A stretch of 64,000 bases of DNA from Verrucomicrobiia bacterium (GCA_049968335.1 JBMFQZ010000009.1:54295-118294); one strand, 5' to 3'; shown: positions 5,238 to 64,000, counted from the first letter of the stretch. Notes: generated by a model from the letters alone, not told the origin. Numbers and translations: made by a program.

Positions 5238-5969
5238 ATGAGAATTTTTATGTTGAAAATAAATAAAGAAAATGAGGAATTAAGGCTAAAAGGGAGATTA
5301 GCCGCGCTTGGTTTTACACTTATTGAGTTGCTTGTTGTGATTGCGATTATCGCGATATTGGCAAGTATGCTTCTGCCTGCAGTGGCAAAGGCAAAAGCAA
5401 AAGCGCAGAGAATAGCCTGCGTAAGCAACCTGCGGCAGGTTACATTAGGTTTTAAACTCTGGGCAGAAGACAACGGCGGGCGTTATCCCTGGTGGATTGA
5501 AGTCACAAACGGCGGTTCAGCAACGTTGCCTGAGGCTTGGATGCACTACATAATCGCTTCAAACGAATTCAGCAATCCGAGAATTCTCGTTTGCCCGAGC
5601 GATACAATCAAAACCCCTGCATCGGACTGGAGCGATGATCCAAATCGAGGTTTCGGCGGATTAAAAGACAAGGCGTTAAGTTATTTCTTCGCCTCTGAAG
5701 CGCGAGATATCTTGCCGCAACATCACCTTGCCGGTGACCGCAATCTTAAAGGACGCGATGGCACATCTTGCGGAGTGGTTAATTTAGTTGGCGTTATAAC
5801 GATGGCAAGTCCGGATGTTGGGGAGTGGGATACCGATATGCATCAGAAAGCCGGCAATATCGCTGTAGTGGATGGAAGCGTTCGCCAGTTGAATTTTGCC
5901 GGGTTAACACAATTTCTATTAAACGCAGGCGACACAAACCTTTCAAACTGCATACTCAAACCCTGGTAA
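5238..5969 (+). CDS. prepilin-type N-terminal cleavage/methylation domain protein with DUF1559-like H-X9-DG C-terminus (type II secretion pseudopilin-like)
   Basis: [24 protein letters not shown] prepilin motif and a C-terminal [12 protein letters not shown] (H-X9-DG). This architecture is abundant in Planctomycetes, Verrucomicrobia and Lentisphaerae. Confidence 0.85.
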
Positions 5970-9285: not shown

Positions 9286-10488
9286 ATGAATCATAACAGG
9301 GTCAGGAGAAGCGTTGATTTTTTAATTACGCTCCTCAGCGGAGCGGTTTTCATCTCATTTTCAATTGCCGCAGAGGATGTTAGCGGTTTTAAACCCGAAA
9401 AGTTAAGAGAGATAGAAGCGGCGATATCAGAGTCAATTAACGCCCGCAATCTTCCCGGCGCGGTAATCTGCATTGGGCACAGGGAGCATCTTTATTTAAA
9501 GTCTTTTGGGAATCGTTCATTAGCGCCTGAAAAATCGCCAATGACCGTTGACACAATCTTTGACGCCGCATCTCTTACCAAGGTTATTGCTACCGCGCCA
9601 TCAATTATGCTGCTTGTTGAGCGGGGCAAAATTGCGTCGCTTGATGACCCGGTTAAAAACTATATCAAGGAATTTGACCGCGAGGGGAGGGAAAAGATAA
9701 CCATCAGACATCTATTAACGCACACTTCTGGATTAAGGGCGGGAATAAGTCCAAATCCGCCGTGGAACGGATATGATACCGGTATAAAACTTGCCTGCGC
9801 AGAAAAACCGCGCACAGCGCCGGGGACAAATTTTCTGTACAGCGATATAAATTTTATTCTTCTTGGAGAAATCGTTCACAGGGTATCGGGTATGCCTCTG
9901 AATGAGTTTGCTGAAAAAGAGATATTCATTCCGCTGAAGATGTTTGACACCGGTTTTTTGCCGCAAAAAGAGAAGATATCGCGGATTGCGCCCACTCAAT
10001 TTATTGGTAAAGAAATGTTGCGCGGCGTTGTTCACGACCCGGTGGCAAGGAATATGGGCGGCGTTGCCGGGCATGCAGGCGTTTTTACTACAGCCTCTGA
10101 CCTTGCGCGATTTTGCAGGATGTTTTTAAACAATGGAGAACTTGACGGCGTTAGAATTTTAAAGCCTGAGACAGTTAGATTGATGCGAACCGTACAAACG
10201 ACAAATTTAGAGGCAAAACGGGGATTGGGTTGGGACATAGATTCAGGATACAGCAAACCGCGCGGGAAACTTTTCCCTATTGGTTCGTATGGACACACCG
10301 GTTTTACCGGCACCGCATTGTGGATTGATCCATATTCGCAAGTCTTCTGGATTTTTCTATCAAACCGTGTTCATCCCGATGGAAAAGGGAATGTCCTTGC
10401 GCTGGAATATTTTCTCGGCACGCTTGTTGCGGAGGCAATTAATGGCGTTAATTATTCAGAAATCAATACTGAGAATAAATCTAAATAG
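9286..10488 (+). CDS. serine hydrolase, beta-lactamase/transpeptidase-like (class C family)
   Basis: 400 aa with a signal-like N-terminus, an S-x-x-K motif (ASLTKV), and YSDINFILLG and HTGFTG blocks typical of the AmpC/esterase EstB family. Confidence 0.85.
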   Translation: MNHNRVRRSVDFLITLLSGAVFISFSIAAEDVSGFKPEKLREIEAAISESINARNLPGAVICIGHREHLYLKSFGNRSLAPEKSPMTVDTIFDAASLTKVIATAPSIMLLVERGKIASLDDPVKNYIKEFDREGREKITIRHLLTHTSGLRAGISPNPPWNGYDTGIKLACAEKPRTAPGTNFLYSDINFILLGEIVHRVSGMPLNEFAEKEIFIPLKMFDTGFLPQKEKISRIAPTQFIGKEMLRGVVHDPVARNMGGVAGHAGVFTTASDLARFCRMFLNNGELDGVRILKPETVRLMRTVQTTNLEAKRGLGWDIDSGYSKPRGKLFPIGSYGHTGFTGTALWIDPYSQVFWIFLSNRVHPDGKGNVLALEYFLGTLVAEAINGVNYSEINTENKSK

Positions 10489-10549: not shown

Positions 10550-12436
10550 TTATTTTTTGCCTTTCATTTTTTCAATCCTTGATTGTAGAAAATCGGCATG
10601 ACGGATTGCATAACTGAAATTTGTCGGGTCGTTTATTTGTCTCAAATAGTAGATCGCCTTTTCAATCTCTCCACATTGTTCATAGATTGAGGAAAGATAA
10701 TACCGGGCGTAATTTGCCCGTTTTTCGTCTATGGCGTTATTGATTTGCAGTTGATACGCGGTGATTAGACCGTTTGTTTCATCGGCATTCTGGAATGCCC
10801 GCGCGCTGTAAACAAGCATCTGGTCTAAAAGCGATTTGTCCTGATCTGTCTGTTTGAACAGATTGAGATTTGGAAAAATATAGGCTTCGCTGATGCGCGA
10901 AGCCAGCCAGAAATTTTGGGCGTAATCAAGCGCGCAGCGCATAGCGTCATAAGCAATCTTTAAACCGGTTTGCTTTTTATCAAGCGGCTCAAGTCCAAGC
11001 AGCCTGTCTGCCACCGACAATTGCTCGCCGATGATTTGATAGAGCGCCGAATAACTTGAGGCTTCATTCATTCTTCTAACCATATTGCGAGAAAAAATCC
11101 CGTACTGGTTTTTTTCTTCCTGCTCCTTGGCGGCGAGCTGCCGCTGTAAATCCGACAATTTTTTTCGCAATTCGTCAACGCGCGCGGTTAACTTTTTAAT
11201 CTCATCCTGAGCAGCCTGTTGCGACTTTTCATTTGCCGAAATTTCCTGCGCTATTTTTATAATTTCCTGCCGCGACTTTTTAACATTGTCGTCAATAAAT
11301 GTTATATTTGTTTTTAAATTAAACAGATTAGTCTCAAGCGTTCGCAGATTAGCGGTGTGACTTTTAAGGCTATTTTCCTTCTCTGATAAGGTCTGAGAAA
11401 GGTTTGATATATCTCTTTTTACCCTGTCCAGTTCGTTCTCCTTTGCAAGGATGGTTTTTGTTAATTCATCTATATTGCTCTGCGCCAGTTCAATCTGGCT
11501 CTGCCAGTTTGTTGATTGATTCGTCAAATTAGTAATGCTGCCTTGAATTTCAAGAAGTTTGTTTTTCTCGCTTTGAATCAAGGCAACCTTATCCGATCTA
11601 TTTGTCTTTAACGAATCAATCTTGGCATTCAATTCCAGAATCTTCTTATCAATATCGGCAAGGGCTTTTTCATCCTGTGTATTTGTCGTTTTCTTCGCAA
11701 CAAGATTTGAGACCGACTCTGTCGCTTTGGACAACTCGGCATCGATACCCTGCAAATCCTTTTCCAATCGTGATATGCTTTTTTCGCTCTCAGGAACAGC
11801 GCGGGTTTTCTGTTTTAATTCGGAGGTAACAGCAGTCTGGTTTGTTTTTGCATCAGATAACTTCTGTTTTAATTTTGCCAAACTGCCTTTTTGTTCGCCA
11901 ATCTCATTTGTCAGCGCGGCAGTCTTTTTGTTTAAAGAATCTAATTGTTTTTTCAAATCATCGACTATTGACGTTCTTGCCAGAACATTTGACCGTTCAA
12001 TAGAAACCTCGTCCTCTCTGTTGGTTAGCCGTCGTTGAGCCGATTTCAAATCTTCTTCAAGCGAAGCGGTTTTAGATTTTAACCTGCTCAATTTATCCTG
12101 CAAATCATTGCGATCTTTTCTCAATTTCGCAATGTTGTCTTTTAAAACCGCAACATTTGAATTTGCAAGGAATATCTGGTTGGTAATGCTTGAAATCTCC
12201 ACTTTTATATTCGCAATCGTGGTTTTTATATCAAAATCAAAATCGGATTTAAAATCTTTTCTCGTCGCATTCTTTTTTAAATAACTTCGTATTTCATATT
12301 TTTTAAACCATACGGTATTTGATAAATAACCGTATGCAAAATAAAGACCTGCTACGAACGCGACGATCAGGCAAATTACCCCTATTACTTTTAATAAACT
12401 TTTAAAATTTAAAGGTTCATTAACCTGCTTTAGCAT
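10550..12436 (-). CDS. membrane-anchored long coiled-coil protein with conserved helical-repeat C-terminal module (paralog of 12438..13649)
   Basis: 628 aa: short N-terminus, one TM helix, a basic WFKKYEIRSYLKK box, about 400 aa rich in heptad-like K/E/L/S/N/Q sequence, then a conserved C-terminal module (YAQNFWLASRISEAYIFPNL...LSSIYEQCGEIEKAIYYLRQI). Confidence 0.7.
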   Translation of the reverse strand: MLKQVNEPLNFKSLLKVIGVICLIVAFVAGLYFAYGYLSNTVWFKKYEIRSYLKKNATRKDFKSDFDFDIKTTIANIKVEISSITNQIFLANSNVAVLKDNIAKLRKDRNDLQDKLSRLKSKTASLEEDLKSAQRRLTNREDEVSIERSNVLARTSIVDDLKKQLDSLNKKTAALTNEIGEQKGSLAKLKQKLSDAKTNQTAVTSELKQKTRAVPESEKSISRLEKDLQGIDAELSKATESVSNLVAKKTTNTQDEKALADIDKKILELNAKIDSLKTNRSDKVALIQSEKNKLLEIQGSITNLTNQSTNWQSQIELAQSNIDELTKTILAKENELDRVKRDISNLSQTLSEKENSLKSHTANLRTLETNLFNLKTNITFIDDNVKKSRQEIIKIAQEISANEKSQQAAQDEIKKLTARVDELRKKLSDLQRQLAAKEQEEKNQYGIFSRNMVRRMNEASSYSALYQIIGEQLSVADRLLGLEPLDKKQTGLKIAYDAMRCALDYAQNFWLASRISEAYIFPNLNLFKQTDQDKSLLDQMLVYSARAFQNADETNGLITAYQLQINNAIDEKRANYARYYLSSIYEQCGEIEKAIYYLRQINDPTNFSYAIRHADFLQSRIEKMKGKK

Positions 12437-54489: not shown

Positions 54490-55575
54490 TCACCCAAGTT
54501 TCTCCGGTATCTCTTTCATCGGTCCCATCCATTTCAACTCGCGTTCAATGTCATCGTGCATCTGGTATTTTTTTGCGACATCGGCAATCTTCGCGCCGCG
54601 GACTACGATGTTTTCCAGATTCGCGTTGCCGAGACCTGAGTTTGCGCAAAAGTTCAGATACCCCACCCATTCGGGATTAATCCCCATAACCTCAATCCCG
54701 ACGCGATCGGCGGCGATGTAATCTGTAGAGGCAATAGCGATTTTTGATTGAACAGGCTTGCCGTTATTCGGTCCGTTGCCTTCCATACCTTCCCATCCGT
54801 CAATAACGGTTGCGCCCCAGTATGGTTTGAGCCGCTGCGCCGTAAGGGCGATATCAACGTGGGTCTGGCGAACCCCACCGTGGAAGACCCGTTTATCATT
54901 CCAGCGCTGCGTATCCTTGCGCGCGTTATGAAGCGGCGCTCCAAGAGCCATATTTTTTATTGAAAGCGTCGCCACCACTGTGTTGTGCGTCTTTAAAATT
55001 GCCGAGCAGATAATAAAGGCGTCCGGGTCTAACAACCGCGCTGCGAGGCGGATTGGAACGAAATGCAGGTCTCCGTTAAGGATGCTGTGAGTCTTGTATT
55101 TTCCTTCTTCGTTTAAATCAACAAGCTGAACATCCAGCGGTTTGAATTCCTGCGGAAGTTTTACATAGCCAAAATTCTCGTATCCTTCAATTGTGTATCC
55201 AGCGCTGGATTCGGCGATTAACACCGGACCTTTGAAACGAGGCGCAAGAAAATCAAGAATCCCCCTCAAACAATCTGCGTGGGTTGACGCAAGCTGATTG
55301 CGCGTATTAACGATGTTTGGTTTTATAATTACGTATTTCTTGGTTTTAAGTTTTGGCATTATCTGGTCTTCGATAGCAAGCAACGCCTCGTAGGCATTTT
55401 TCCGACGACTATCGCCGTTAGCAATGGAGACAATTGATTTTTCAATCGCGGGTTGCTCTGATGCCGCCGTGTTGCCTGCCCCTTGTTGTCCGCGAAGCAG
55501 CGCCGTCGTCGCGGTAAAAGCGGCAGCGGATAATATAAAATGCCGTCTTGATACCTTGTGTTCGCCGATGTTCAT
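54490..55575 (-). CDS. DUF362 domain protein with twin-arginine signal
   Basis: Tat-like SRRHFILSAAAFTATTALL plus the DUF362 hallmark YVIIKPNIVN. Confidence 0.8.
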   Translation of the reverse strand: MNIGEHKVSRRHFILSAAAFTATTALLRGQQGAGNTAASEQPAIEKSIVSIANGDSRRKNAYEALLAIEDQIMPKLKTKKYVIIKPNIVNTRNQLASTHADCLRGILDFLAPRFKGPVLIAESSAGYTIEGYENFGYVKLPQEFKPLDVQLVDLNEEGKYKTHSILNGDLHFVPIRLAARLLDPDAFIICSAILKTHNTVVATLSIKNMALGAPLHNARKDTQRWNDKRVFHGGVRQTHVDIALTAQRLKPYWGATVIDGWEGMEGNGPNNGKPVQSKIAIASTDYIAADRVGIEVMGINPEWVGYLNFCANSGLGNANLENIVVRGAKIADVAKKYQMHDDIERELKWMGPMKEIPEKLG

Positions 55576-55723
55576 ATTCCAAGTTTACACAAATCTTTTT
55601 TAATTTAAAAGAATTAAAATTCCAGGAATAAAATCGCAAGAGTATCCCCCCGTTTTTACAAAAAATTACAGAAATGTTTTAAATATTTATATAAGTAAGC
55701 CACTCGGCAGTATCCGCTGATTT

Positions 55724-56440
55724 CTACCTCTTATCCTTAGATAGTCTCTGCAATAAATTTTCAAATAGCCTGTTAGAAATATTTTTATATTCAGGAAAAA
55801 TAACCTTTGTATCAGACAAAATTTTTTCCGGATTTATTATCGTGTTGAGGGCTCTAACTTCTTCCTCATAACCGATCAACCATTCACGGATTGAAACATC
55901 ATCCAGTTCAAAGTGGCATTGAAATCCATAAACATTAGGCTTAAAGCGAACAATTTGATTCTTGCACAAGTCTGAGCTTGCTAACAAAACCGCATCCTCC
56001 GGAAGATCAAAAGTATCTCCATGCCAGTGAAAGGCGTAAAATCTTTCAGGCAGCCCTTGTAATACGGGGTCTAATGAAGCAACGTTTGTCAAATAAATTT
56101 CATACCATCCAATTTCAACCGCTCTGTTCTTGTAAACCGGAGCCCCTAAAGCCTTCGCAATTAGTTGAGCCCCTAAACATATTCCGACAATTGGAACCTC
56201 TGTTTTTAAAGATTTTTTTATATATTCTATTTCAGGCGCCAAAAACGGATATTTATCTTCCTCATTAACGCCCATCGGACCGCCTAAAACGAGTATGAAA
56301 TCATATTCTTCAGCAGATTTATCCGGAAATTCTCCCCGATCAAGATTAACTTCCTCTATATTCCATCCCCTCTGCCGCAAAAACTCACCGAGCATTGCGG
56401 GTCCTTCTAAACAAATGTGTTTTAACGCAAGTGCATTCAT
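55724..56440 (-). CDS. class I (type 1) glutamine amidotransferase
   Basis: MNALALKHICLEGPAML start, nucleophile elbow GICLGAQL, and HWHGDTF. The track ORF begins 13 codons earlier. Confidence 0.8.
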   Translation of the reverse strand: MNALALKHICLEGPAMLGEFLRQRGWNIEEVNLDRGEFPDKSAEEYDFILVLGGPMGVNEEDKYPFLAPEIEYIKKSLKTEVPIVGICLGAQLIAKALGAPVYKNRAVEIGWYEIYLTNVASLDPVLQGLPERFYAFHWHGDTFDLPEDAVLLASSDLCKNQIVRFKPNVYGFQCHFELDDVSIREWLIGYEEEVRALNTIINPEKILSDTKVIFPEYKNISNRLFENLLQRLSKDKR

Positions 56441-56663
56441 TTTAAAAATATTAATCAAAAAGTATTTTAAAACCTTCACTCCGACAATAGCAAAATTGTT
56501 ACCACTGAAATTCCACGAGCCATTACCAATTTGAACCAGAGATTGGATTTCAAAATACTATTCCCCATCGCCCTGATTATTATCCTTGAAACATTGCGTT
56601 AAAACTTTTACAAAAATTCTAAAACCGTTGCGCCGCAACAAAAGTTTATTGTTTTAAAATTTT

Positions 56664-58061
56664 ATGGGAAAACCGACCGACATTCAGGTTCGCGAAACTG
56701 CGCTCTATTTAATCCCGATTAAAACAAGGGTGCCGTTAAAGTTTGGCACGGAAACGCTCACATCCGTCACCTGCGCCCGCGTTCGCGTCACGGTCTCAGA
56801 CTCGCGCGGAAACAAAGCCATCGGCTGGGGTGAAACTCCATTAAGCGTCCAATGGGTTTGGCCATCTCAAATCTCTTACGATGAACGTCATAAGTCCCTA
56901 ATTGAATTTTGCAAACTCCTCGCTCGCGAGTGGCGACTCTTCCCGGAAAAAGGTCATCCGCTTGAACTTGGCAACGATTTTATCAAGTTCCGATTGCTGC
57001 CGCTTTTGGAACAGTTCAACCAGAATCGTCAGGAAAAAATGCCATATCTTGCCGCCTTGCTCTGCTGCTCGCCGTTTGATATCGCAATTCACGACGGCTA
57101 CGGCAACCTCGTTGGCAGACCTGTCTATGAAACTTACAATCCCGATTTTATGAATCGCGACCTTGCGGCTTTCATTGAAGCGTCGCCGGACGCAAATGTG
57201 AATTTTACATCCCGTTACCCGCACGAGTTCATAATCCCGCGACGCAATAGGATGAAGGCATGGCATCTTGTTGGCGGATTAGACCCGATTGACCCCTCCG
57301 ATTTAACCGGAAACGAACCATCAGACGGTTACCCCGTTCTGCTCCGCGACTGGATTCGCCGCGACGGACTCAAATGCCTGAAAATCAAACTCTGCGGAAA
57401 CGACGAAGGCTGGGACTGCGAACGGATTGTGCGCGTGGGAAAAATTGCGATTGAGGAAGGCGTGGACTGGTTAAGCGCCGATTTTAACTGCACCGTCACA
57501 ATCCCCGGCTACGTAAATAGAATCCTTGACAAACTCCGCGATGAAAATCCGCGCATCTACGGAATGATTCTCTACGTTGAACAACCGTTCCCGTATGAAT
57601 TGGAAAAATTCCCGATTGACGTCCGCAGCGTCTCAGCGCGTAAACCGCTCTTTTTAGACGAAAGCGCCCACGACTGGAAGATGATAAGACTTGGCAGGTC
57701 GCTCGGCTGGAGCGGCGTTGCATTAAAAACCTGCAAGACCCAGACCGGCGCCATACTCTCCGCCTGCTGGGCAGAAGCGCACGGAATGACCCTTATGGTT
57801 CAAGACTTAACAAACCCGATGCTCGCGCAGATTCCTCACCTTTTGCTCGCCGCGCATCTGAACACAATCATGGGCGTTGAAACAAACTCAATGCAGTTTT
57901 ATCCCGAAGCCTCCGCGCCGGAAGCGGCTGTTCACCCGGAAATTTACCGCCGCCAGAATGGAACCGTTGACCTCTCATCCATCAGCGGCAGCGGCTTCGG
58001 CTACCGCATCAACGAAATCAACCGCCCTCTGCCAAAACCTGCAGTTGAATACCGAGATTGA
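56664..58061 (+). CDS. enolase-superfamily enzyme (mandelate racemase/muconate lactonizing type)
   Basis: KxK motif (CLKIKLCG) and the metal-ligand series DxN (SADFN), EQP (YVEQPFP) and DES (LFLDESAHD) in canonical order. Substrate unknown. Confidence 0.75.
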   Translation: MGKPTDIQVRETALYLIPIKTRVPLKFGTETLTSVTCARVRVTVSDSRGNKAIGWGETPLSVQWVWPSQISYDERHKSLIEFCKLLAREWRLFPEKGHPLELGNDFIKFRLLPLLEQFNQNRQEKMPYLAALLCCSPFDIAIHDGYGNLVGRPVYETYNPDFMNRDLAAFIEASPDANVNFTSRYPHEFIIPRRNRMKAWHLVGGLDPIDPSDLTGNEPSDGYPVLLRDWIRRDGLKCLKIKLCGNDEGWDCERIVRVGKIAIEEGVDWLSADFNCTVTIPGYVNRILDKLRDENPRIYGMILYVEQPFPYELEKFPIDVRSVSARKPLFLDESAHDWKMIRLGRSLGWSGVALKTCKTQTGAILSACWAEAHGMTLMVQDLTNPMLAQIPHLLLAAHLNTIMGVETNSMQFYPEASAPEAAVHPEIYRRQNGTVDLSSISGSGFGYRINEINRPLPKPAVEYRD

Positions 58062-58565: not shown

Positions 58566-59891
58566 ATGAATAAAAATCGTATGAAGCGGGTTACCCGGCG
58601 AGAATTTTTGACCTCTGGCATTAAGGTGGCTGGCGTTGTTGCAATGCCTTTTATTATCCCGGGGTCAGCGCTCGGACTCAATGGAAGGATTGCCCCAAGC
58701 GAGCGAATCGTGATGGCGGGAATCGGGCTCGGCGGTCGCGGATTTTACGACCTTAGCGTAATGATCAACCAGAACGACGTCCAATGGGTGGCTGTTTGCG
58801 AGGTCACAAAGGGGCGACGGGAAGCCGCAAAAAAGTTTGTTGATGAAAAATACGGAAACAAGGATTGCGCCGTATACAGCGACTTGCGTCAACTCCTTGC
58901 CGAAAGAACCGACGTGGACGCCGTTTTGATTGCAACCGGCGACCGCTGGCATGCGCTGGCTTCCATCTGGGCAATGCGCGCAGGCAAAGATGTTTATTGC
59001 GAAAAACCGGCGTGTCTAACGATGGAGCAGGGAAAAATGGTTGTTGAAACCGCCCGCCGCTACGGCAGAGTTTACCAAACCGGCGCCCAACGGCTCAGCG
59101 AGCCGCCTCACGTCTATGCAATTGAACTTGCCCGCTCAGGACGACTCGGCAAAATCCAGACCATTTACGCAGATATCCGCTGGCGCGACGGCAACCGCCA
59201 CGACTGGCTTCCTGCCGAACCTGAACCGCCTAAAGAGGAACTTGACTGGGATTTGTTCATCGGTCCGTCTCCGTGGCGACCATTCAACCGCGGTTATCTT
59301 AATGGCGGATGGTATCACTTTTACGATCTTGCCACAGACGTTGCAATGTGGGGCGCCCACACAGTTGCACAGGCACTCGCCGGAATTGATAGAGAAAATC
59401 TCTCCTTCATTGAATTTGAATACTCTGGACCCGAGGCAAGCATCGTTACGCATCTTTCCAACGGCATCAAACTTATCCTTTATCGCAAACCCGGCTCTGT
59501 CTGGGAACCGTGCGAATACTGGCGCGGCGCTTGCGGCGAGCGATTTGACGGCACCGAAGGCTGGGCAGCCGCAGCCGACGGTTATTCAAAAACCGATGTT
59601 TCATCACCCGCTCTGCTGGAGGATTACAAAAAATTGCTTAATGAATACACAACGCGAACACAACGACCGCTTGATCACGTTCGCGACTTCCTTGACTGTG
59701 TAAAATCGCGCAGACAAACCGTGGCAAACCCCGATGTAATGTATCAATCAATGTGCATCTGTTTAGCGGCGGACATTGTGGGTCAGCTAAAGAGGAATTT
59801 AAAATTTGACCTGCGCAAGGCTGAATTTGTCGGCGACGAAGAGGCAAACCGCCTGCGCCTGCGCGCAATGCGAGCGCCGTATATTATATGA
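58566..59891 (+). CDS. Gfo/Idh/MocA-family oxidoreductase with twin-arginine signal
   Basis: Tat motif TRREFLTSGIKVAGVVAMPFI, Rossmann start VMAGIGLGGRG, and DVYCEKP block. Confidence 0.9.
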   Translation: MNKNRMKRVTRREFLTSGIKVAGVVAMPFIIPGSALGLNGRIAPSERIVMAGIGLGGRGFYDLSVMINQNDVQWVAVCEVTKGRREAAKKFVDEKYGNKDCAVYSDLRQLLAERTDVDAVLIATGDRWHALASIWAMRAGKDVYCEKPACLTMEQGKMVVETARRYGRVYQTGAQRLSEPPHVYAIELARSGRLGKIQTIYADIRWRDGNRHDWLPAEPEPPKEELDWDLFIGPSPWRPFNRGYLNGGWYHFYDLATDVAMWGAHTVAQALAGIDRENLSFIEFEYSGPEASIVTHLSNGIKLILYRKPGSVWEPCEYWRGACGERFDGTEGWAAAADGYSKTDVSSPALLEDYKKLLNEYTTRTQRPLDHVRDFLDCVKSRRQTVANPDVMYQSMCICLAADIVGQLKRNLKFDLRKAEFVGDEEANRLRLRAMRAPYII

Positions 59892-60013
59892 GTTTGGCAA
59901 AAGGCCACAGTAGTTTAAAAAATCTGCATATTTTTTAAAAATTATTGGCAATAACAATACCTCCAATCGTAACGCGAAATAATAAATCTATTTCTGATCG
60001 AATACCTTTTTAG

Positions 60014-60152
60014 CACAGGCATTCCTGCCTGTGGCACATTCGTCCTCGCCTGCACAGCAATCCCTACCTGCTGCTTCAGCGGTTTCACTTTCGCAGACGG
60101 AAAAGAGACAGACAGGAATGTCTGTGCTACCAACGCAGACAGGAATGTCTGC
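60014..60152. repeat. three short tetraloop hairpin repeats (repeat family 3)
   Basis: cacaggca-ttcc-tgcctgtg (60014-60033), acagaca-ggaa-tgtctgt (60108-60125) and gcagaca-ggaa-tgtctgc (60135-60152). The first is the inverse orientation of the other two. Confidence 0.7.
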
Positions 60153-61893
60153 GCTACCTTATGATTTAAAACGTTACTGCATTGAACATTCGCTATACGG
60201 TGTAGATATTGACCCCGGAGCAGTTGAAATCTGCAAATTAAGATTCTGGCTTTCTATGATCGTTGATGAAGAAGATTTTCACCACATTAAACCTCTCCCT
60301 AACCTCGATTATAAAATAGTCTGCGGAGATTCATTGTTGGGTGTTGAAAAGAATGTTTTAAATTGGCAAAGTTTCAATCAACTTGAAAAATTAAAATCTC
60401 AATATTTCAATGAAACAAATGCGTCAAAGAAACAGGAGTACAAAAAACAGATTGATGGATTGATTAAAGAAATAACAAAAGGACATACACAATTTGATTT
60501 TGAGGTTTACTTTTCTGAAGTTTTTCATAAAGATTCTAAATTCGACATCGTAATTGGAAACCCGCCGTATATCCAATTGCAAAAAGATGGCGGAAGACTG
60601 GCTAAACTTTACGAAAAGCAAAATTATAAAACCTTTGCCCGCACGGGCGATATTTATTGCCTGTTTTACGAAAAAGGAATACAATTGCTGAAAGACAACG
60701 GAATACTTTGCTACATTACCTCGAATAAATGGATGCGTGCAGGCTACGGCGAAAAACTGCGAAGCTTTTTTATGCAATACAACCCTACAACACTGATTGA
60801 TTTAGGACCAGGTATATTCGAAAATGCAACGGTTGATACTAATATTTTGTTGATACAAAAAACAAAAACACATAATAAGCAGCTTAAAGCCGTAACCCTG
60901 CAAAAACAAAACGATACGGTAAATATTGAACAACAATTACAAGAACGGGCTGTAATCCTTGAAAAACTTACCCAAGATGCCTGGTTTATAGGCAGTAGCG
61001 CCGAGCAGCAACTTAAAGAAAAAATAGAACGCATTGGAAAACCGCTGAAAGATTGGAATGTGAATATTTATCGTGGAGTATTAACCGGTCTTAACGAAGC
61101 CTTTATCATAACCAAAGAAAAGCGCAACGAGATACTTGCCAATTGCAAAGACGAAGATGAACGCCGCCGCACCGAAGCCATCATCAAACCCATTTTACGC
61201 GGAAGAGACATAAAACGGTATTACTACGAGTGGGCAGGGCTGTGGGTGATAGGAACATTTCCTGCATTATGTTTAAATATTGAAGATTATCCTGCAATTA
61301 AAAAGTACTTTTTAGACAATTTTGATATAAGACAATTAGAACAATCGGGCAAAAAATATCCTGAACTTGGTTTTGATGCACGCAAGAAAACAGGAAACAA
61401 ATGGTTTGAAACACAAGACCAAATTGCCTACTACCCCGAGTTTGAGAAGGAGAAGATTATTTACATTGAAATAATGACCGATAACTGGGAAGAAGGTTAT
61501 GAATTTCCATGTTACACTTACAAAAATGACACATGTTTTGTGCTAAATACAGCTTACATTATGACAGGAAAGAATTTAAAATATATTTTAGGTGTGTTGA
61601 ATTCAAACTTTGGGAGTTACCTTGTTAAACAACATGTAACTCAGCTTCAAAAAAGACAATTTAGAATGTTAGCACAATATGTTAACAATTTTGAGATTCC
61701 CCCCATCACGCCTGCCAACCAGCCCATTGTATCGCAAATAGAAGCACTGGTGGATAAAATCCTTGCAGCAAAGAAAGAAAACCCGCAGGCGGATACAAAA
61801 AATTTTGAAGAGGAAATTGACCATTTAGTTTATAATTTGTATGATTTAATACCAGATGAAATAAAGATAATTGAAGGAGGGAAAAAATTATGA
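60031..61893 (+). CDS. Eco57I-family N6-adenine DNA methyltransferase with TaqI_C-like target-recognition domain; N-terminally truncated (no AdoMet motif I), possibly a remnant
   Basis: YGVDIDPGAVEICKLRFWLSMIVDEE...LPNLDYKIVCGDSLLG, catalytic FDIVIGNPPYIQLQ (NPPY), and TRD block IYRGVLTGLNEAFII. The first ~45 codons (..RQTGMSVLPTQTGMSALP) are translated hairpin repeats, and the true start is unclear (in-frame ATGs at 60118 and 60145). The upstream gene ends at 59891, so there is no room for motif X/I. Confidence 0.75.
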   Translation: MAHSSSPAQQSLPAASAVSLSQTEKRQTGMSVLPTQTGMSALPYDLKRYCIEHSLYGVDIDPGAVEICKLRFWLSMIVDEEDFHHIKPLPNLDYKIVCGDSLLGVEKNVLNWQSFNQLEKLKSQYFNETNASKKQEYKKQIDGLIKEITKGHTQFDFEVYFSEVFHKDSKFDIVIGNPPYIQLQKDGGRLAKLYEKQNYKTFARTGDIYCLFYEKGIQLLKDNGILCYITSNKWMRAGYGEKLRSFFMQYNPTTLIDLGPGIFENATVDTNILLIQKTKTHNKQLKAVTLQKQNDTVNIEQQLQERAVILEKLTQDAWFIGSSAEQQLKEKIERIGKPLKDWNVNIYRGVLTGLNEAFIITKEKRNEILANCKDEDERRRTEAIIKPILRGRDIKRYYYEWAGLWVIGTFPALCLNIEDYPAIKKYFLDNFDIRQLEQSGKKYPELGFDARKKTGNKWFETQDQIAYYPEFEKEKIIYIEIMTDNWEEGYEFPCYTYKNDTCFVLNTAYIMTGKNLKYILGVLNSNFGSYLVKQHVTQLQKRQFRMLAQYVNNFEIPPITPANQPIVSQIEALVDKILAAKKENPQADTKNFEEEIDHLVYNLYDLIPDEIKIIEGGKKL

Positions 61894-63239
61894 AAAATAA
61901 AATTGATTTTGAAAAAGACAATATTTTGTTCATTAGCAATGAACAAATTTATATCGATGATTTTAAAAAAGACAATGATTATCACAGGCAAAAAATTAGA
62001 GAAAAAATTGAACCTTGGTTAACAGCTGTATTTCAAAGCGAACACTTATCTTTACTTGTAGGGTCAGGGTTGCCGATATCATTGAATTCTGTAAAAGTTG
62101 AAAATACCGAAAAAAGTACTAAATCCGAAGATAATAAAGATTCAACGGATAATGAAAATTCCATGATGAATAGAATTGAATTTGAAAATACAGCTTATAA
62201 AGATTTAATAAAAAATAAAGCCGATAAAGAAGCCAAGCAAATGGGGCGAGGTGAAGCAAATTTTGAAGATGATTTGCGTGTTGCTATTGAATTACTAAAG
62301 GGGTATGAAATATTAAATAATAGCCAAGAGCCCGAATCACTTAAGCAAGAAATAAATAAATATTTAAATCAACTCATTCAATCAATATTAAAAAATGAAC
62401 AAAACTTTTTTTCGAAACAAGAAACTTTGTTGATTCTGAAGAAATTTCTTTTAAGTTTCTCTGCACGCTCAGCAACACGGGATAGATTAAAAATTTTTAC
62501 AACCAATTACGATCGATTTATTGAATATGGACTTGATGAAGCAGGTATACTTACACTGGATAGGTTTATAGGCAAGTTAAAACCAATTATGCGGTTTCAT
62601 AAAATTGACCTTGATTATCACTATAATCCGCCAGGTATTCGGGGCGAACCTCGTTATGTAGAAGGCGTTGTAAGATATACAAAACTTCACGGTTCGCTTG
62701 ACTGGCAATTTGAAGATGGGAATATTGTTAAAATGCCTATTCCATTTGGAGCTGAAGTCGATGAAAAATATTTTAATAATCCATTTGATAAGGTTGTAAT
62801 TTATCCTAATTCTTCAAAGGCGGTAGAAACCTCTTTCTTCCCATACTCTGAACTTTTTAGAGATTTTTCAACTGCAATTTGTAGGCCTAATTCTGTGTTA
62901 GTAACCTATGGTTATGGATTTGGTGATTCACATATTAATAGAATTATTGGAGATATGCTTACTATTCCATCAACTCATCTGGTTATTATATCCTATGATT
63001 TAGCAAATAATCGTATTAAAAATTTCATTGAAAAATGCAATGAATCTCAATTAACTTTTTTGATTGGTGGAGAATTGGCAAATATTGAACATTTAACCAA
63101 TTATTATCTTCCCAAACCTGCTATTGATAGAATAACCGATAGACAGACAAAAATTCTTGAAAAAAGGAAATCAACACTTGAGAAAAAAGAAAATGATATA
63201 AATAATAATGATGGAGACATCAATGAAACAGAATTTTAA
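61890..63239 (+). CDS. SIR2_2-type sirtuin-like protein (defence-associated SIR2, partner of HerA)
   Basis: 449 aa with LLVGSGLPISL, IFTTNYDRFIEY (TTNYD), TKLHGSLDW and YGYGFGDSHINR, the hallmark order of SIR2_2 domains. ATG overlaps the MTase stop (ATGA at 61890-61893) and is preceded by ggaggg. Confidence 0.85.
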   Translation: MKNKIDFEKDNILFISNEQIYIDDFKKDNDYHRQKIREKIEPWLTAVFQSEHLSLLVGSGLPISLNSVKVENTEKSTKSEDNKDSTDNENSMMNRIEFENTAYKDLIKNKADKEAKQMGRGEANFEDDLRVAIELLKGYEILNNSQEPESLKQEINKYLNQLIQSILKNEQNFFSKQETLLILKKFLLSFSARSATRDRLKIFTTNYDRFIEYGLDEAGILTLDRFIGKLKPIMRFHKIDLDYHYNPPGIRGEPRYVEGVVRYTKLHGSLDWQFEDGNIVKMPIPFGAEVDEKYFNNPFDKVVIYPNSSKAVETSFFPYSELFRDFSTAICRPNSVLVTYGYGFGDSHINRIIGDMLTIPSTHLVIISYDLANNRIKNFIEKCNESQLTFLIGGELANIEHLTNYYLPKPAIDRITDRQTKILEKRKSTLEKKENDINNNDGDINETEF

Positions 63240-64000
63240 TGATATAAGAAATCAAGTGATAGGAACTGTAGAATTTGTTTCTTCCAGAGAGATAAAAGTA
63301 TTGCTTGAGATTGATGCGCCACAAAGTACTTCCATTAATACAGGGATACCACAATTATTTCCACGAATTAACGGTTTCTTACTGATACCAAATGAGGCAG
63401 GTGCTTTAATTGGAATGATTACTTGGATAGGTATAGAATATTCTGCCTATCCAAAGAGAAAAGGATATAAGGATTTTGACCTTGTTGATCTTCCTTTCCC
63501 ACTACGCAAACTTTCATTATCTCCATTAGGTATTTTAAAGGAAAAAGAAGATGGTTATGAGATAGAAAGAGGTGTTAATAGCTATCCATCGGTTGGAGAT
63601 ATTGTAATAATTCCAAGTAATGAACAACTCAAAGCCATTGTACAGAAAAAAGATGAAAATGCTAAAGTCAAAATAGGCAATTCACCGCTTGCTTCAAATG
63701 CTCCTGTTTTTGTTGATCCTGATAAAATCTTTGGGCGACATCTTGCAATTCTTGGGAACACTGGAAGTGGAAAATCTTGTTCTGTTGCAGGGCTTATTAG
63801 ATGGTCAATTGAAAGTGCTCAGAATGAAGTTAAGGATAATAAGGAGGTTAATGCTCGTTTTATTATCCTTGATCCCAATGGAGAATACGGAGAATGTTTT
63901 AATGACTTTGGAAATATAAAAAGATATGCAGTAAAAATAAGAGAGGATGAAAATATTCATCAACTAAAAGTTCCATCCTGGATGTGGAATAGCTGGGAAT
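63224..64000 (+). CDS. HerA-like (DUF87) ATPase, N-terminal 259 codons only; cut by window end
   Basis: Own translation from ATG 63224: MKQNFNDIRNQVIGTVEFVSSREIKVLLEID... (HAS-barrel-like), then FGRHLAILGNTGSGKSCSVAGLI (Walker A) and FIILDPNGEY. It overlaps the SIR2 gene by 16 nt, and ggag lies 6 nt upstream. It has no stop in the window, so it is missing from the ORF track. Confidence 0.85.

Follow-up and report, generated by a model that had tools for sequence, protein, structure and literature searches.

When a methyltransferase gene runs directly into a SIR2-HerA gene pair, do the three genes form one antiphage system, or does a system of two genes stand behind the ruin of another? The question is raised by the last part of a 64,000-nucleotide (nt) stretch of DNA from a Verrucomicrobiia metagenome-assembled genome (MAG; GCA_049968335.1, JBMFQZ010000009.1:54295-118294), the whole of which I call the window and from whose first letter all positions are counted. 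Here 60031-64000 holds three open reading frames (ORFs) on one strand, namely ORF1, which resembles an N6-adenine methyltransferase (MTase), SIR2 and HerA. An earlier note on this DNA had taken the MTase for an unusual third partner that may give SIR2-HerA a self/non-self layer like that of a restriction-modification (R-M) system, and had kept a decayed neighbouring R-M gene as its fallback. In this article I will argue for the latter, and I put at about 0.85 the probability that the locus is a standard SIR2-HerA module beside the remnant of a transposon-truncated R-M gene, with no functional three-gene system.

ORF1, a probable half of a methyltransferase gene

The domains of ORF1 are those of an MTase: Pfam searches matched Eco57I at 4.5e-45 and the TaqI_C target recognition domain (TRD; PF12950) at 4.7e-8, above the cut-off, the PADLOC profile REase_MTase_IIG (PDLC03596) matched at 2e-198, and ORF1 shares 53-72% identity with the matching region of its counterparts in the related loci L003, L004 and L007. 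The earlier call of an MTase gene is thus right as to the domains and wrong as to completeness, since only the C-terminal half of the profile is covered: ORF1 residues 43-618 correspond to profile positions 580-1146 of 1148, and the MTase homology spans 60157-61890, from about codon 43 on. What is retained is motif II (YGVDID), motif IV (GNPPY, residues 176-180), the TRD and the conserved C-terminal tail. What is missing can be read from an alignment (A4) of ORF1 with longer relatives situated directly 5' of SIR2-HerA in L003 (partial, >724 aa), L007 (1221 aa), L038 (1226 aa) and L077 (1212 aa), in which GNPPY is invariant and motif I, DPA[CV]GSG, lies about 90 residues before YGVDI(D/Q) in all four relatives. 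The homology of ORF1 begins only about 13 residues before YGVDID, and its motif I columns are filled by residues derived from repetitive extragenic palindromic (REP) sequences, so that by this alignment and by the PADLOC profile coordinates the motif I that binds S-adenosylmethionine (SAM), motif X and about 600 N-terminal residues are absent from ORF1. The Pfam family MmeI_Mtase, which covers the motif I region, matched the proteins of L003, L007 and L038 and did not match ORF1, and tblastn with the full-length MTases of L001, L007 and L038 against the 64-kb window recovered only 60151-61881 and no 5' half.

In gamma-class MTases, SAM binding requires the central beta-1 strand and the glycine loop. 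Because motif I and the whole N-terminal half are missing, ORF1, judged from its sequence, cannot be an active MTase; it is best regarded as a remnant, the 3' half of an Eco57I/TaqI_C-type MTase gene for a protein of about 1030-1220 aa. Also lacking, in comparison with an intact type IIG-like MTase of the PDLC03596 kind, is the helicase-nuclease partner: in L001, L007, L129 and L130 the intact MTase is preceded directly by a gene for a PLD(HKD)-SNF2 helicase-nuclease of about 1080-1120 aa, and tblastn with the L001 PLD-SNF2 protein gave no match in the 64-kb window. The intact ancestor of ORF1 may accordingly be pictured as an MTase paired with such a helicase-nuclease in an R-M-like system. 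As to the partner itself, the two genes lie at 2168-9019 in L001, 2963-9990 in L007, 911-7776 in L129 and 932-7734 in L130, the PLD-SNF2 gene is the 'HKD+Snf2' C3a139 of PADLOC with DrmD-like matches, and the two together have a two-gene, type III-like R-M arrangement that PADLOC classes under type IIG.

Two other identities for ORF1 were considered and rejected. A DISARM or BREX MTase would require more than the weak partial matches to DrmMI and PglX, which fell far below the cut-offs, and DrmA/DrmB and Brx genes are absent. A genuine short or split form of the MTase, which database homologues of about 580-620 aa might suggest, dissolves on inspection, for in each of L129, L130 and L131 the short ORF belongs to a single frameshifted gene and is immediately preceded by the half with motif I. 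Homologous MTase genes are often split in this way, the frameshift falling in the stretch that links motif I to motif II (split genes at 4253-7776 in L129, 4394-7734 in L130 and 219-3807 in L131); gene callers divide these MTases into halves of about 455-575 aa and about 580-620 aa, and the frameshifts could be decay, sequencing error or phase variation.

Hairpins at the break

Up to codon 42, the reading frame of ORF1 passes through REP-type hairpins (60016-60031, 60109-60124 and 60136-60151), arranged as a REPIN-like inverted pair (60011-60033 and 60104-60127) with a further hairpin at 60134-60153. Allowing for up to 2 mismatches, the 16-mer CAGACAGGAATGTCTG has 3 copies here and none elsewhere in the 64 kb, against 0.01 expected by chance, and the hairpin region folds as DNA at -34.3 kcal/mol (z = -5.8). 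Since no copy exists elsewhere in the 64 kb, the hairpins would have come with the island rather than from a host-wide REP family. They share with the elements mobilized by REP-associated tyrosine transposases (RAYTs, IS200/IS605-like Y1 transposases) short GC-rich hairpins, a conserved tail and an inverted pair, which sits at the break, and they differ in that there are three hairpins only and that no RAYT gene lies within the 64-kb window.

A RAYT does lie beside the same repeat in L004, whose SIR2 is 89% identical to that of the window. There the repeat forms a 7-unit array, after a Y1_Tnp (RAYT) gene and before a window-like MTase junction (CTACC|TTAYGA), and 5' of the RAYT the contig keeps the MTase motif I region (IKICDPAVGSGAFPIGMMHEIV...), which runs into the Y1_Tnp gene. 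Because the order in L004 is MTase 5' part, Y1_Tnp, REP array and window-type junction, it is reasonable to propose that a RAYT/REP element entered the linker between MTase motifs I and II, that the window lineage then lost all sequence 5' of the REPs, including the MTase 5' half, motif I and the helicase gene, and that the leftover hairpins now cap the break. Apart from this locus, RAYT genes recur at this MTase family: the one in L004 (183-1150) is in frame from the MTase N-terminal part, protein P0215 has PF01797 fused to Eco57I and TaqI_C domains, and a RAYT stands immediately 3' of the MTase tail in L003 (5596-6171), with a decayed copy in L088 (about 11945-12260).

A functional three-gene system, in which the MTase would methylate host DNA and so provide self/non-self discrimination for SIR2-HerA, must be judged against these facts. 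It can draw on the co-directional genes with their overlapping stop and start codons and Shine-Dalgarno sites, and on the MTase-SIR2-HerA order that is also seen in L003, L004 and L007. However, a protein without motifs I and X and about 600 N-terminal residues has neither the central Rossmann strand nor the SAM-binding loop, the gene in L004 was interrupted by a transposon and did not evolve into a short form, in the closest relatives of the SIR2-HerA pair no MTase ORF leads into SIR2, an Eco57I-type neighbour occurs in only 6 of 68 loci, and the characterised SIR2-HerA systems function as two genes (PMC11472057; PMC11514289). I regard the three-gene system as extremely improbable.

Mosaic history and selection on the fragment

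ORF1 is not of one age. Its codons 43-400 diverged long ago from those of both L003 and L004 (synonymous divergence, dS, >1; ratio of nonsynonymous to synonymous divergence, dN/dS, about 0.1), and from about nt 61230 on, a single block of recent descent, made up of TRD, tail, SIR2 and HerA, is common to the window and L003 (dS 0.1-0.2). Against L004, dS is 1.05 for the ORF1 fragment and 0.31 for SIR2.

Several observations weigh against the reading of a two-gene module beside a remnant. ORF1 is open across 576 homologous codons; its dN/dS against L004 is 0.11 (0.11-0.19 against the relatives); it has 11 lineage-specific amino-acid changes, compared with 19 in L004 and 25 in L003, and so no excess; and the NCBI annotation pipeline (PGAP) lists it as a 620-aa 'Eco57I restriction-modification methylase domain-containing protein' (P0148) and not as a pseudogene. 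On the side of the defence pair, HerA is visible only to residue 259, so that the pair is only presumably complete in this genome. The four points about ORF1 are expected if the truncation is recent, and they do not by themselves prove a loss of function. The count of private substitutions, as a test for relaxed selection, is confounded by the mosaic history and decides neither way on decay, and the low dN/dS is explained by divergence that mostly accumulated in intact genes, and not by selection on the fragment.

The same observations could be taken to mean that the truncated ORF1 was kept for a non-catalytic role, for example with its TaqI_C domain as a DNA-binding adaptor or sensor for SIR2-HerA, and one could add to the open frame, the low ratios and the ordinary number of private changes that the TRD, tail, SIR2 and HerA were recently co-inherited with L003 and that the window and L004 have different TRDs, as though specificity mattered. 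I find such a role highly improbable, given that the low dN/dS dates from the intact-gene era and that the two dS values against L004 reflect the mosaic history, that the fragment starts midway through the catalytic fold and would probably not fold, that the short homologues of L129-L131 have their N-terminal half directly upstream, and that no recurrent stand-alone C-terminal half was found beside SIR2-HerA.

SIR2 and HerA as a standard pair

All the hallmarks that the earlier note had listed for the pair were found, that is, the SIR2 motifs VGSGLP, TTNYD, KLHGS and GYGFGD and, in the part of HerA that the window contains, a Walker A (GNTGSGKS) following a barrel-like N-terminal domain. Its assignment to the SIR2-HerA (Gao_19/Nezha-type) systems was borne out by profile searches, in which SIR2 matched SIR2_2 (PF13289) in Pfam at 1.7e-9, above the cut-off, and the PADLOC SIR2 profile PDLC04079 at 2.2e-165, and the HerA part matched DUF87 at 3.4e-17 and the PADLOC HerA profile PDLC04098 at 1.8e-119, where the first 259 residues cover profile positions 1-262 of 686. 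HerA homologues have about 650-720 aa, and the Walker B, the arginine finger and the rest of the C-terminal side would be encoded past 64000; a full-length orthologue in L001, 95% identical to the window part, matches the HerA chains of SIR2-HerA and DUF4297-HerA complexes. The window SIR2 likewise matches the SIR2 chains of the solved SIR2-HerA complexes 8j4u, 8yhx and 8w9l; TTNYD, with the catalytic Asn, and KLHGS, with the catalytic His, align with 8j4u_A and are invariant across the SIR2 alignment (A1). SIR2 has 6992 homologues at E <= 1e-10, and among 80 SIR2 homologue loci surveyed, with one genome per GTDB species, HerA stands directly 3' of SIR2 in all 77 that have downstream sequence. 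Against close relatives dN/dS is 0.15-0.31 for the two genes (0.15-0.29 for SIR2).

Since family, defence-profile and solved-structure matches agree and HerA follows SIR2 in 77 of 77 loci, 61890-64000 can be read as a standard two-gene SIR2-HerA abortive-infection (Abi) defence module. The NCBIfam equivalogs scored far under their cut-offs (SIR2_antiphage, NF042942, 130.7 bits against 500 for SIR2; HerA_antiphage, NF042943 and NF042944, 56.4 bits against 800 and 54.1 against 850 for the HerA fragment), and the subfamily therefore differs from the E. coli-type SIR2-HerA; it is the one that PADLOC already models with PDLC04079 and PDLC04098. Compared with the systems described as Gao_19 or 'Nezha' from E. 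coli, Paenibacillus sp. 453MF and S. aureus (8j4u/8su9, 8yhx and 8w9l/8wld), the window has the same two-gene overlapping architecture, the two catalytic motifs of SIR2 and the N-terminal barrel and Walker A of HerA in common, and it differs in subfamily, with PDB sequence matches reaching only E of about 1e-22, and in that its HerA gene is cut by the window end.

In characterised systems, a HerA hexamer and a SIR2 12- to 14-mer form a complex of about 1 MDa with NADase, ATPase, helicase and nuclease/nickase activities (PMC11472057; PMC11514289; PMC13434337), and the known triggers are phage proteins, the pair being active alone in heterologous hosts (PMC13434337). By homology, the window pair would assemble HerA hexamers and SIR2 12- to 14-mers into a similarly large complex, phage infection would unleash the SIR2 NADase and the HerA ATPase, helicase and nickase activities, and depletion of NAD+ would halt the infected cell.

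Restriction-modification genes as neighbours

If the MTase were a partner, it should recur, a point that the earlier note itself had made a test of its reading. The immediate upstream neighbours of SIR2, tabulated in 68 species-level loci, do not bear this out: the Eco57I family is found 5' of SIR2 in 6/68 (L007, L021, L038, L043, L050 and L077; four type IIG-like, one M.Eco57I-like and one type ISP), N6_N4_Mtase in 6/68, ResIII-type restriction subunits in 6/68, the type I HsdS (Methylase_S) in 5/68 and RloB in 3/68, and the remaining loci have unrelated genes. R-M genes of any type stand directly 5' of SIR2 in about 23 of the 68, so that R-M adjacency as a class is common (about one third of loci) and not specific to the Eco57I MTase family. 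Literature searches for SIR2-HerA with a type IIG or MTase partner found no such report. The third partner with its self/non-self layer consequently loses its footing, ORF1 being without motif I and its N-terminal half, the PLD-SNF2 gene being absent, L001 and L002 keeping a relic of the MTase tail only and the family recurring in 6/68 loci, and it is the decayed R-M gene that the ORF1 truncation, the L001/L002 relic and the 6/68 adjacency bear out.

HsdR lies directly downstream of the pair in 5 of 55 loci, and in L009, L076, L079 and L081 the pair sits between hsdS (5') and hsdR (3'); L013 also has hsdR downstream, its upstream side being cut by the contig end. A place between hsdS and hsdR is the classical position of PrrC/RloC-type restriction-linked genes. 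For S. thermophilus, SIR2/HerA has been described as 'inserted between or downstream of R/M systems' (PMC11514479), so the homologues resemble PrrC and RloC in type I R-M loci in standing behind or inside R-M operons (about 23/68), with the difference that any functional coupling of SIR2-HerA to R-M is hypothetical and that the R-M gene of the window is broken.

The R-M linkage might be functional in intact loci, with SIR2-HerA as a PrrC-like backup that is triggered when a phage disables the R-M system, and the window as a relic of this. The frequency of R-M components upstream (Eco57I 6, N6_N4_Mtase 6, ResIII 6, Methylase_S 5, to which RloB would add 3), the placement between hsdS and hsdR in at least 4 loci and the published parallel in S. 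thermophilus are what one would expect of it. Nevertheless, I consider it rather unlikely, for about 23/68 is an uncontrolled figure and defence-island clustering alone predicts frequent R-M neighbours, the R-M types are heterogeneous and an R-M neighbour is lacking in about two thirds of loci, and SIR2-HerA is active alone in heterologous hosts with phage proteins as triggers (PMC13434337).

The flank that travels with the pair

If ORF1 is a remnant, why do its stop codon and the SIR2 start codon overlap so neatly? The closest SIR2-HerA relatives, L001 and L002 (SIR2 93% identical, nucleotide identity 95%), have a DUF3800 gene upstream and, just before SIR2, a frameshifted MTase-tail relic of about 100 bp that includes the ATGA and through which no MTase ORF reads; the corresponding flank of the window, 61792-61889, is 95% conserved with both. 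Because this relic keeps the ATGA without an MTase ORF, the overlap is heritage of the cassette's 5' flank and not evidence of coupling, and the translational coupling that the earlier note took as the sign of a functional operon loses that meaning. The ancestral SIR2-HerA would have stood directly behind an MTase C-terminal tail, from which the overlap and the apparent coupling would be inherited. The flank also has a promoter-like site at 61817-61845 (TTGACC-17-TATGAT, 10/12 positions), of a kind that is not above chance in such AT-rich DNA.

SIR2-HerA is 95-96.5% identical in nucleotides to cassettes in unrelated contexts, and a further copy of MTase-tail sequence follows HerA in L001 (81 bp, 96%), L003 and L004. 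Direct tail repeats bracket the pair in L001 (81 bp, 96%), L003 (49 bp, 92%) and L005 (167 bp, 96%), the repeat in L005 being the tail of an unrelated N6_N4 MTase upstream of SIR2; a downstream copy at the present locus would fall beyond the window's end. A search for tail-like direct repeats in all loci found them in three loci only, L001, L003 and L005, apart from short matches in L018 and L022, and they are not general. The repeats are at 9906-10000 and 13458-13545 in L001, about 2060-2170, 5480-5590 and 6180-6330 in L003, and about 9805-9970 and 13450-13620 in L005.

These repeats suggest that the pair may insert at, or recombine through, the 3' ends of R-M genes. On the strength of the tail repeats in L001, L003 and L005 and of the recent TRD-tail-SIR2-HerA block common to the window and L003, one might go further and see in the subfamily's SIR2-HerA pairs mobile cassettes that settle at the 3' ends of R-M genes and serve there as restriction-linked backup effectors, a proposal that I would call doubtful; the window locus would then be a decayed example of such an R-M/SIR2-HerA pairing.

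Genomic setting

The features of the locus are collected in Table 1. As the earlier note had it, the three ORFs are co-directional, an ATGA (61890-61893) joins the ORF1 stop to the SIR2 ATG, and Shine-Dalgarno sites precede both downstream genes, GGAGG at 61876-61880, 9 nt 5' of the SIR2 ATG, and GGAG at 63213-63216, 6 nt 5' of the HerA ATG. One detail needs correction: HerA starts with the ATG at 63223-63225 and not at 63224, which makes its overlap with SIR2 17 nt (63223-63239) instead of 16.

Table 1. Coordinates of the features at the window's 3' end.
Feature	Position	Strand	Description
ORF1	60031-61893	+	620 codons, GTG start; probable 5'-truncated remnant of an Eco57I/TaqI_C-type (type IIG-like) N6-adenine MTase gene
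SIR2 (SIR2_2)	61890-63239	+	predicted NADase effector gene, 449 aa
HerA ATPase gene, 5' part	63223-64000	+	259 codons to the window end; N-terminal barrel region and Walker A
REP-type hairpins at the broken MTase 5' end	60011-60153	.	inverted REPIN-like pair and one extra hairpin
5' flank of about 100 bp accompanying SIR2-HerA	61792-61889	+	MTase C-terminal tail coding sequence, with SIR2 Shine-Dalgarno site

The GC content falls from about 0.45-0.55 before position 60000 or so to about 0.30-0.39 after it, through to the window end. The genes 5' of the island are annotated Verrucomicrobiia MAG genes on a 131-kb contig (NCBI proteins MGC8743502-518, with SIR2 as MGC8743520.1), and a host Gfo/Idh/MocA gene adjoins the REP hairpins. 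Given this GC drop, the Verrucomicrobiia host genes, the occurrence of SIR2-HerA at 95-96.5% nucleotide identity in unrelated contexts and the host relatives L086-L088, which have a Gfo gene 85-86% identical and no SIR2-HerA downstream of it, the low-GC block is horizontally acquired DNA in the Verrucomicrobiia MAG. Neither an Rfam family nor a tRNA was found at the island edge, and a promoter and terminator scan of 59700-64000 gave 18 promoter-like sites against 16.8 expected, which is uninformative.

In L086-L088, about 400 bp after Gfo, there is an MTase-tail relic of about 70 codons with an internal stop (11727-11936 in L086, 7064-7279 in L087 and 11751-11936 in L088), followed in turn by a decayed RAYT and a radical SAM gene. 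The host lineage seems to have long had a variable defence spot behind Gfo. An assembly chimera at about 60000, with a Verrucomicrobiia contig joined to foreign low-GC DNA at a repeat, would also give a sharp GC change at the REP hairpins, and the record is a MAG whose cassette is near-identical to copies in other contexts; it is very unlikely all the same, since the decayed MTase tail of the same family and the decayed RAYT after Gfo in L086-L088 indicate that an R-M gene of this kind is native to the locus, and the window has no further copies of the REP motif that would mislead an assembler. Elsewhere in the window, 55500-56750 is a second low-GC stretch (0.36-0.39, in surroundings of about 0.5) with a minus-strand ORF of 251 aa at 55724-56479 and its flank.

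Concluding remarks

With the window, a further SIR2-HerA locus, this one from a Verrucomicrobiia MAG, joins a family that has thousands of members and several solved structures, and the adjacency of R-M and SIR2-HerA genes, having already been noted in S. thermophilus, is not new. The survey, with R-M genes upstream in about one third of loci, does raise the wider question of whether Abi modules that deplete NAD+ are functionally connected with R-M systems. For annotation there is a plainer lesson, which is that an open, Shine-Dalgarno-coupled 'Eco57I methylase' ORF can be a transposon-truncated half gene, and that a stop codon overlapping the next start may have been inherited from an ancestral arrangement and need not point to a working operon partner.

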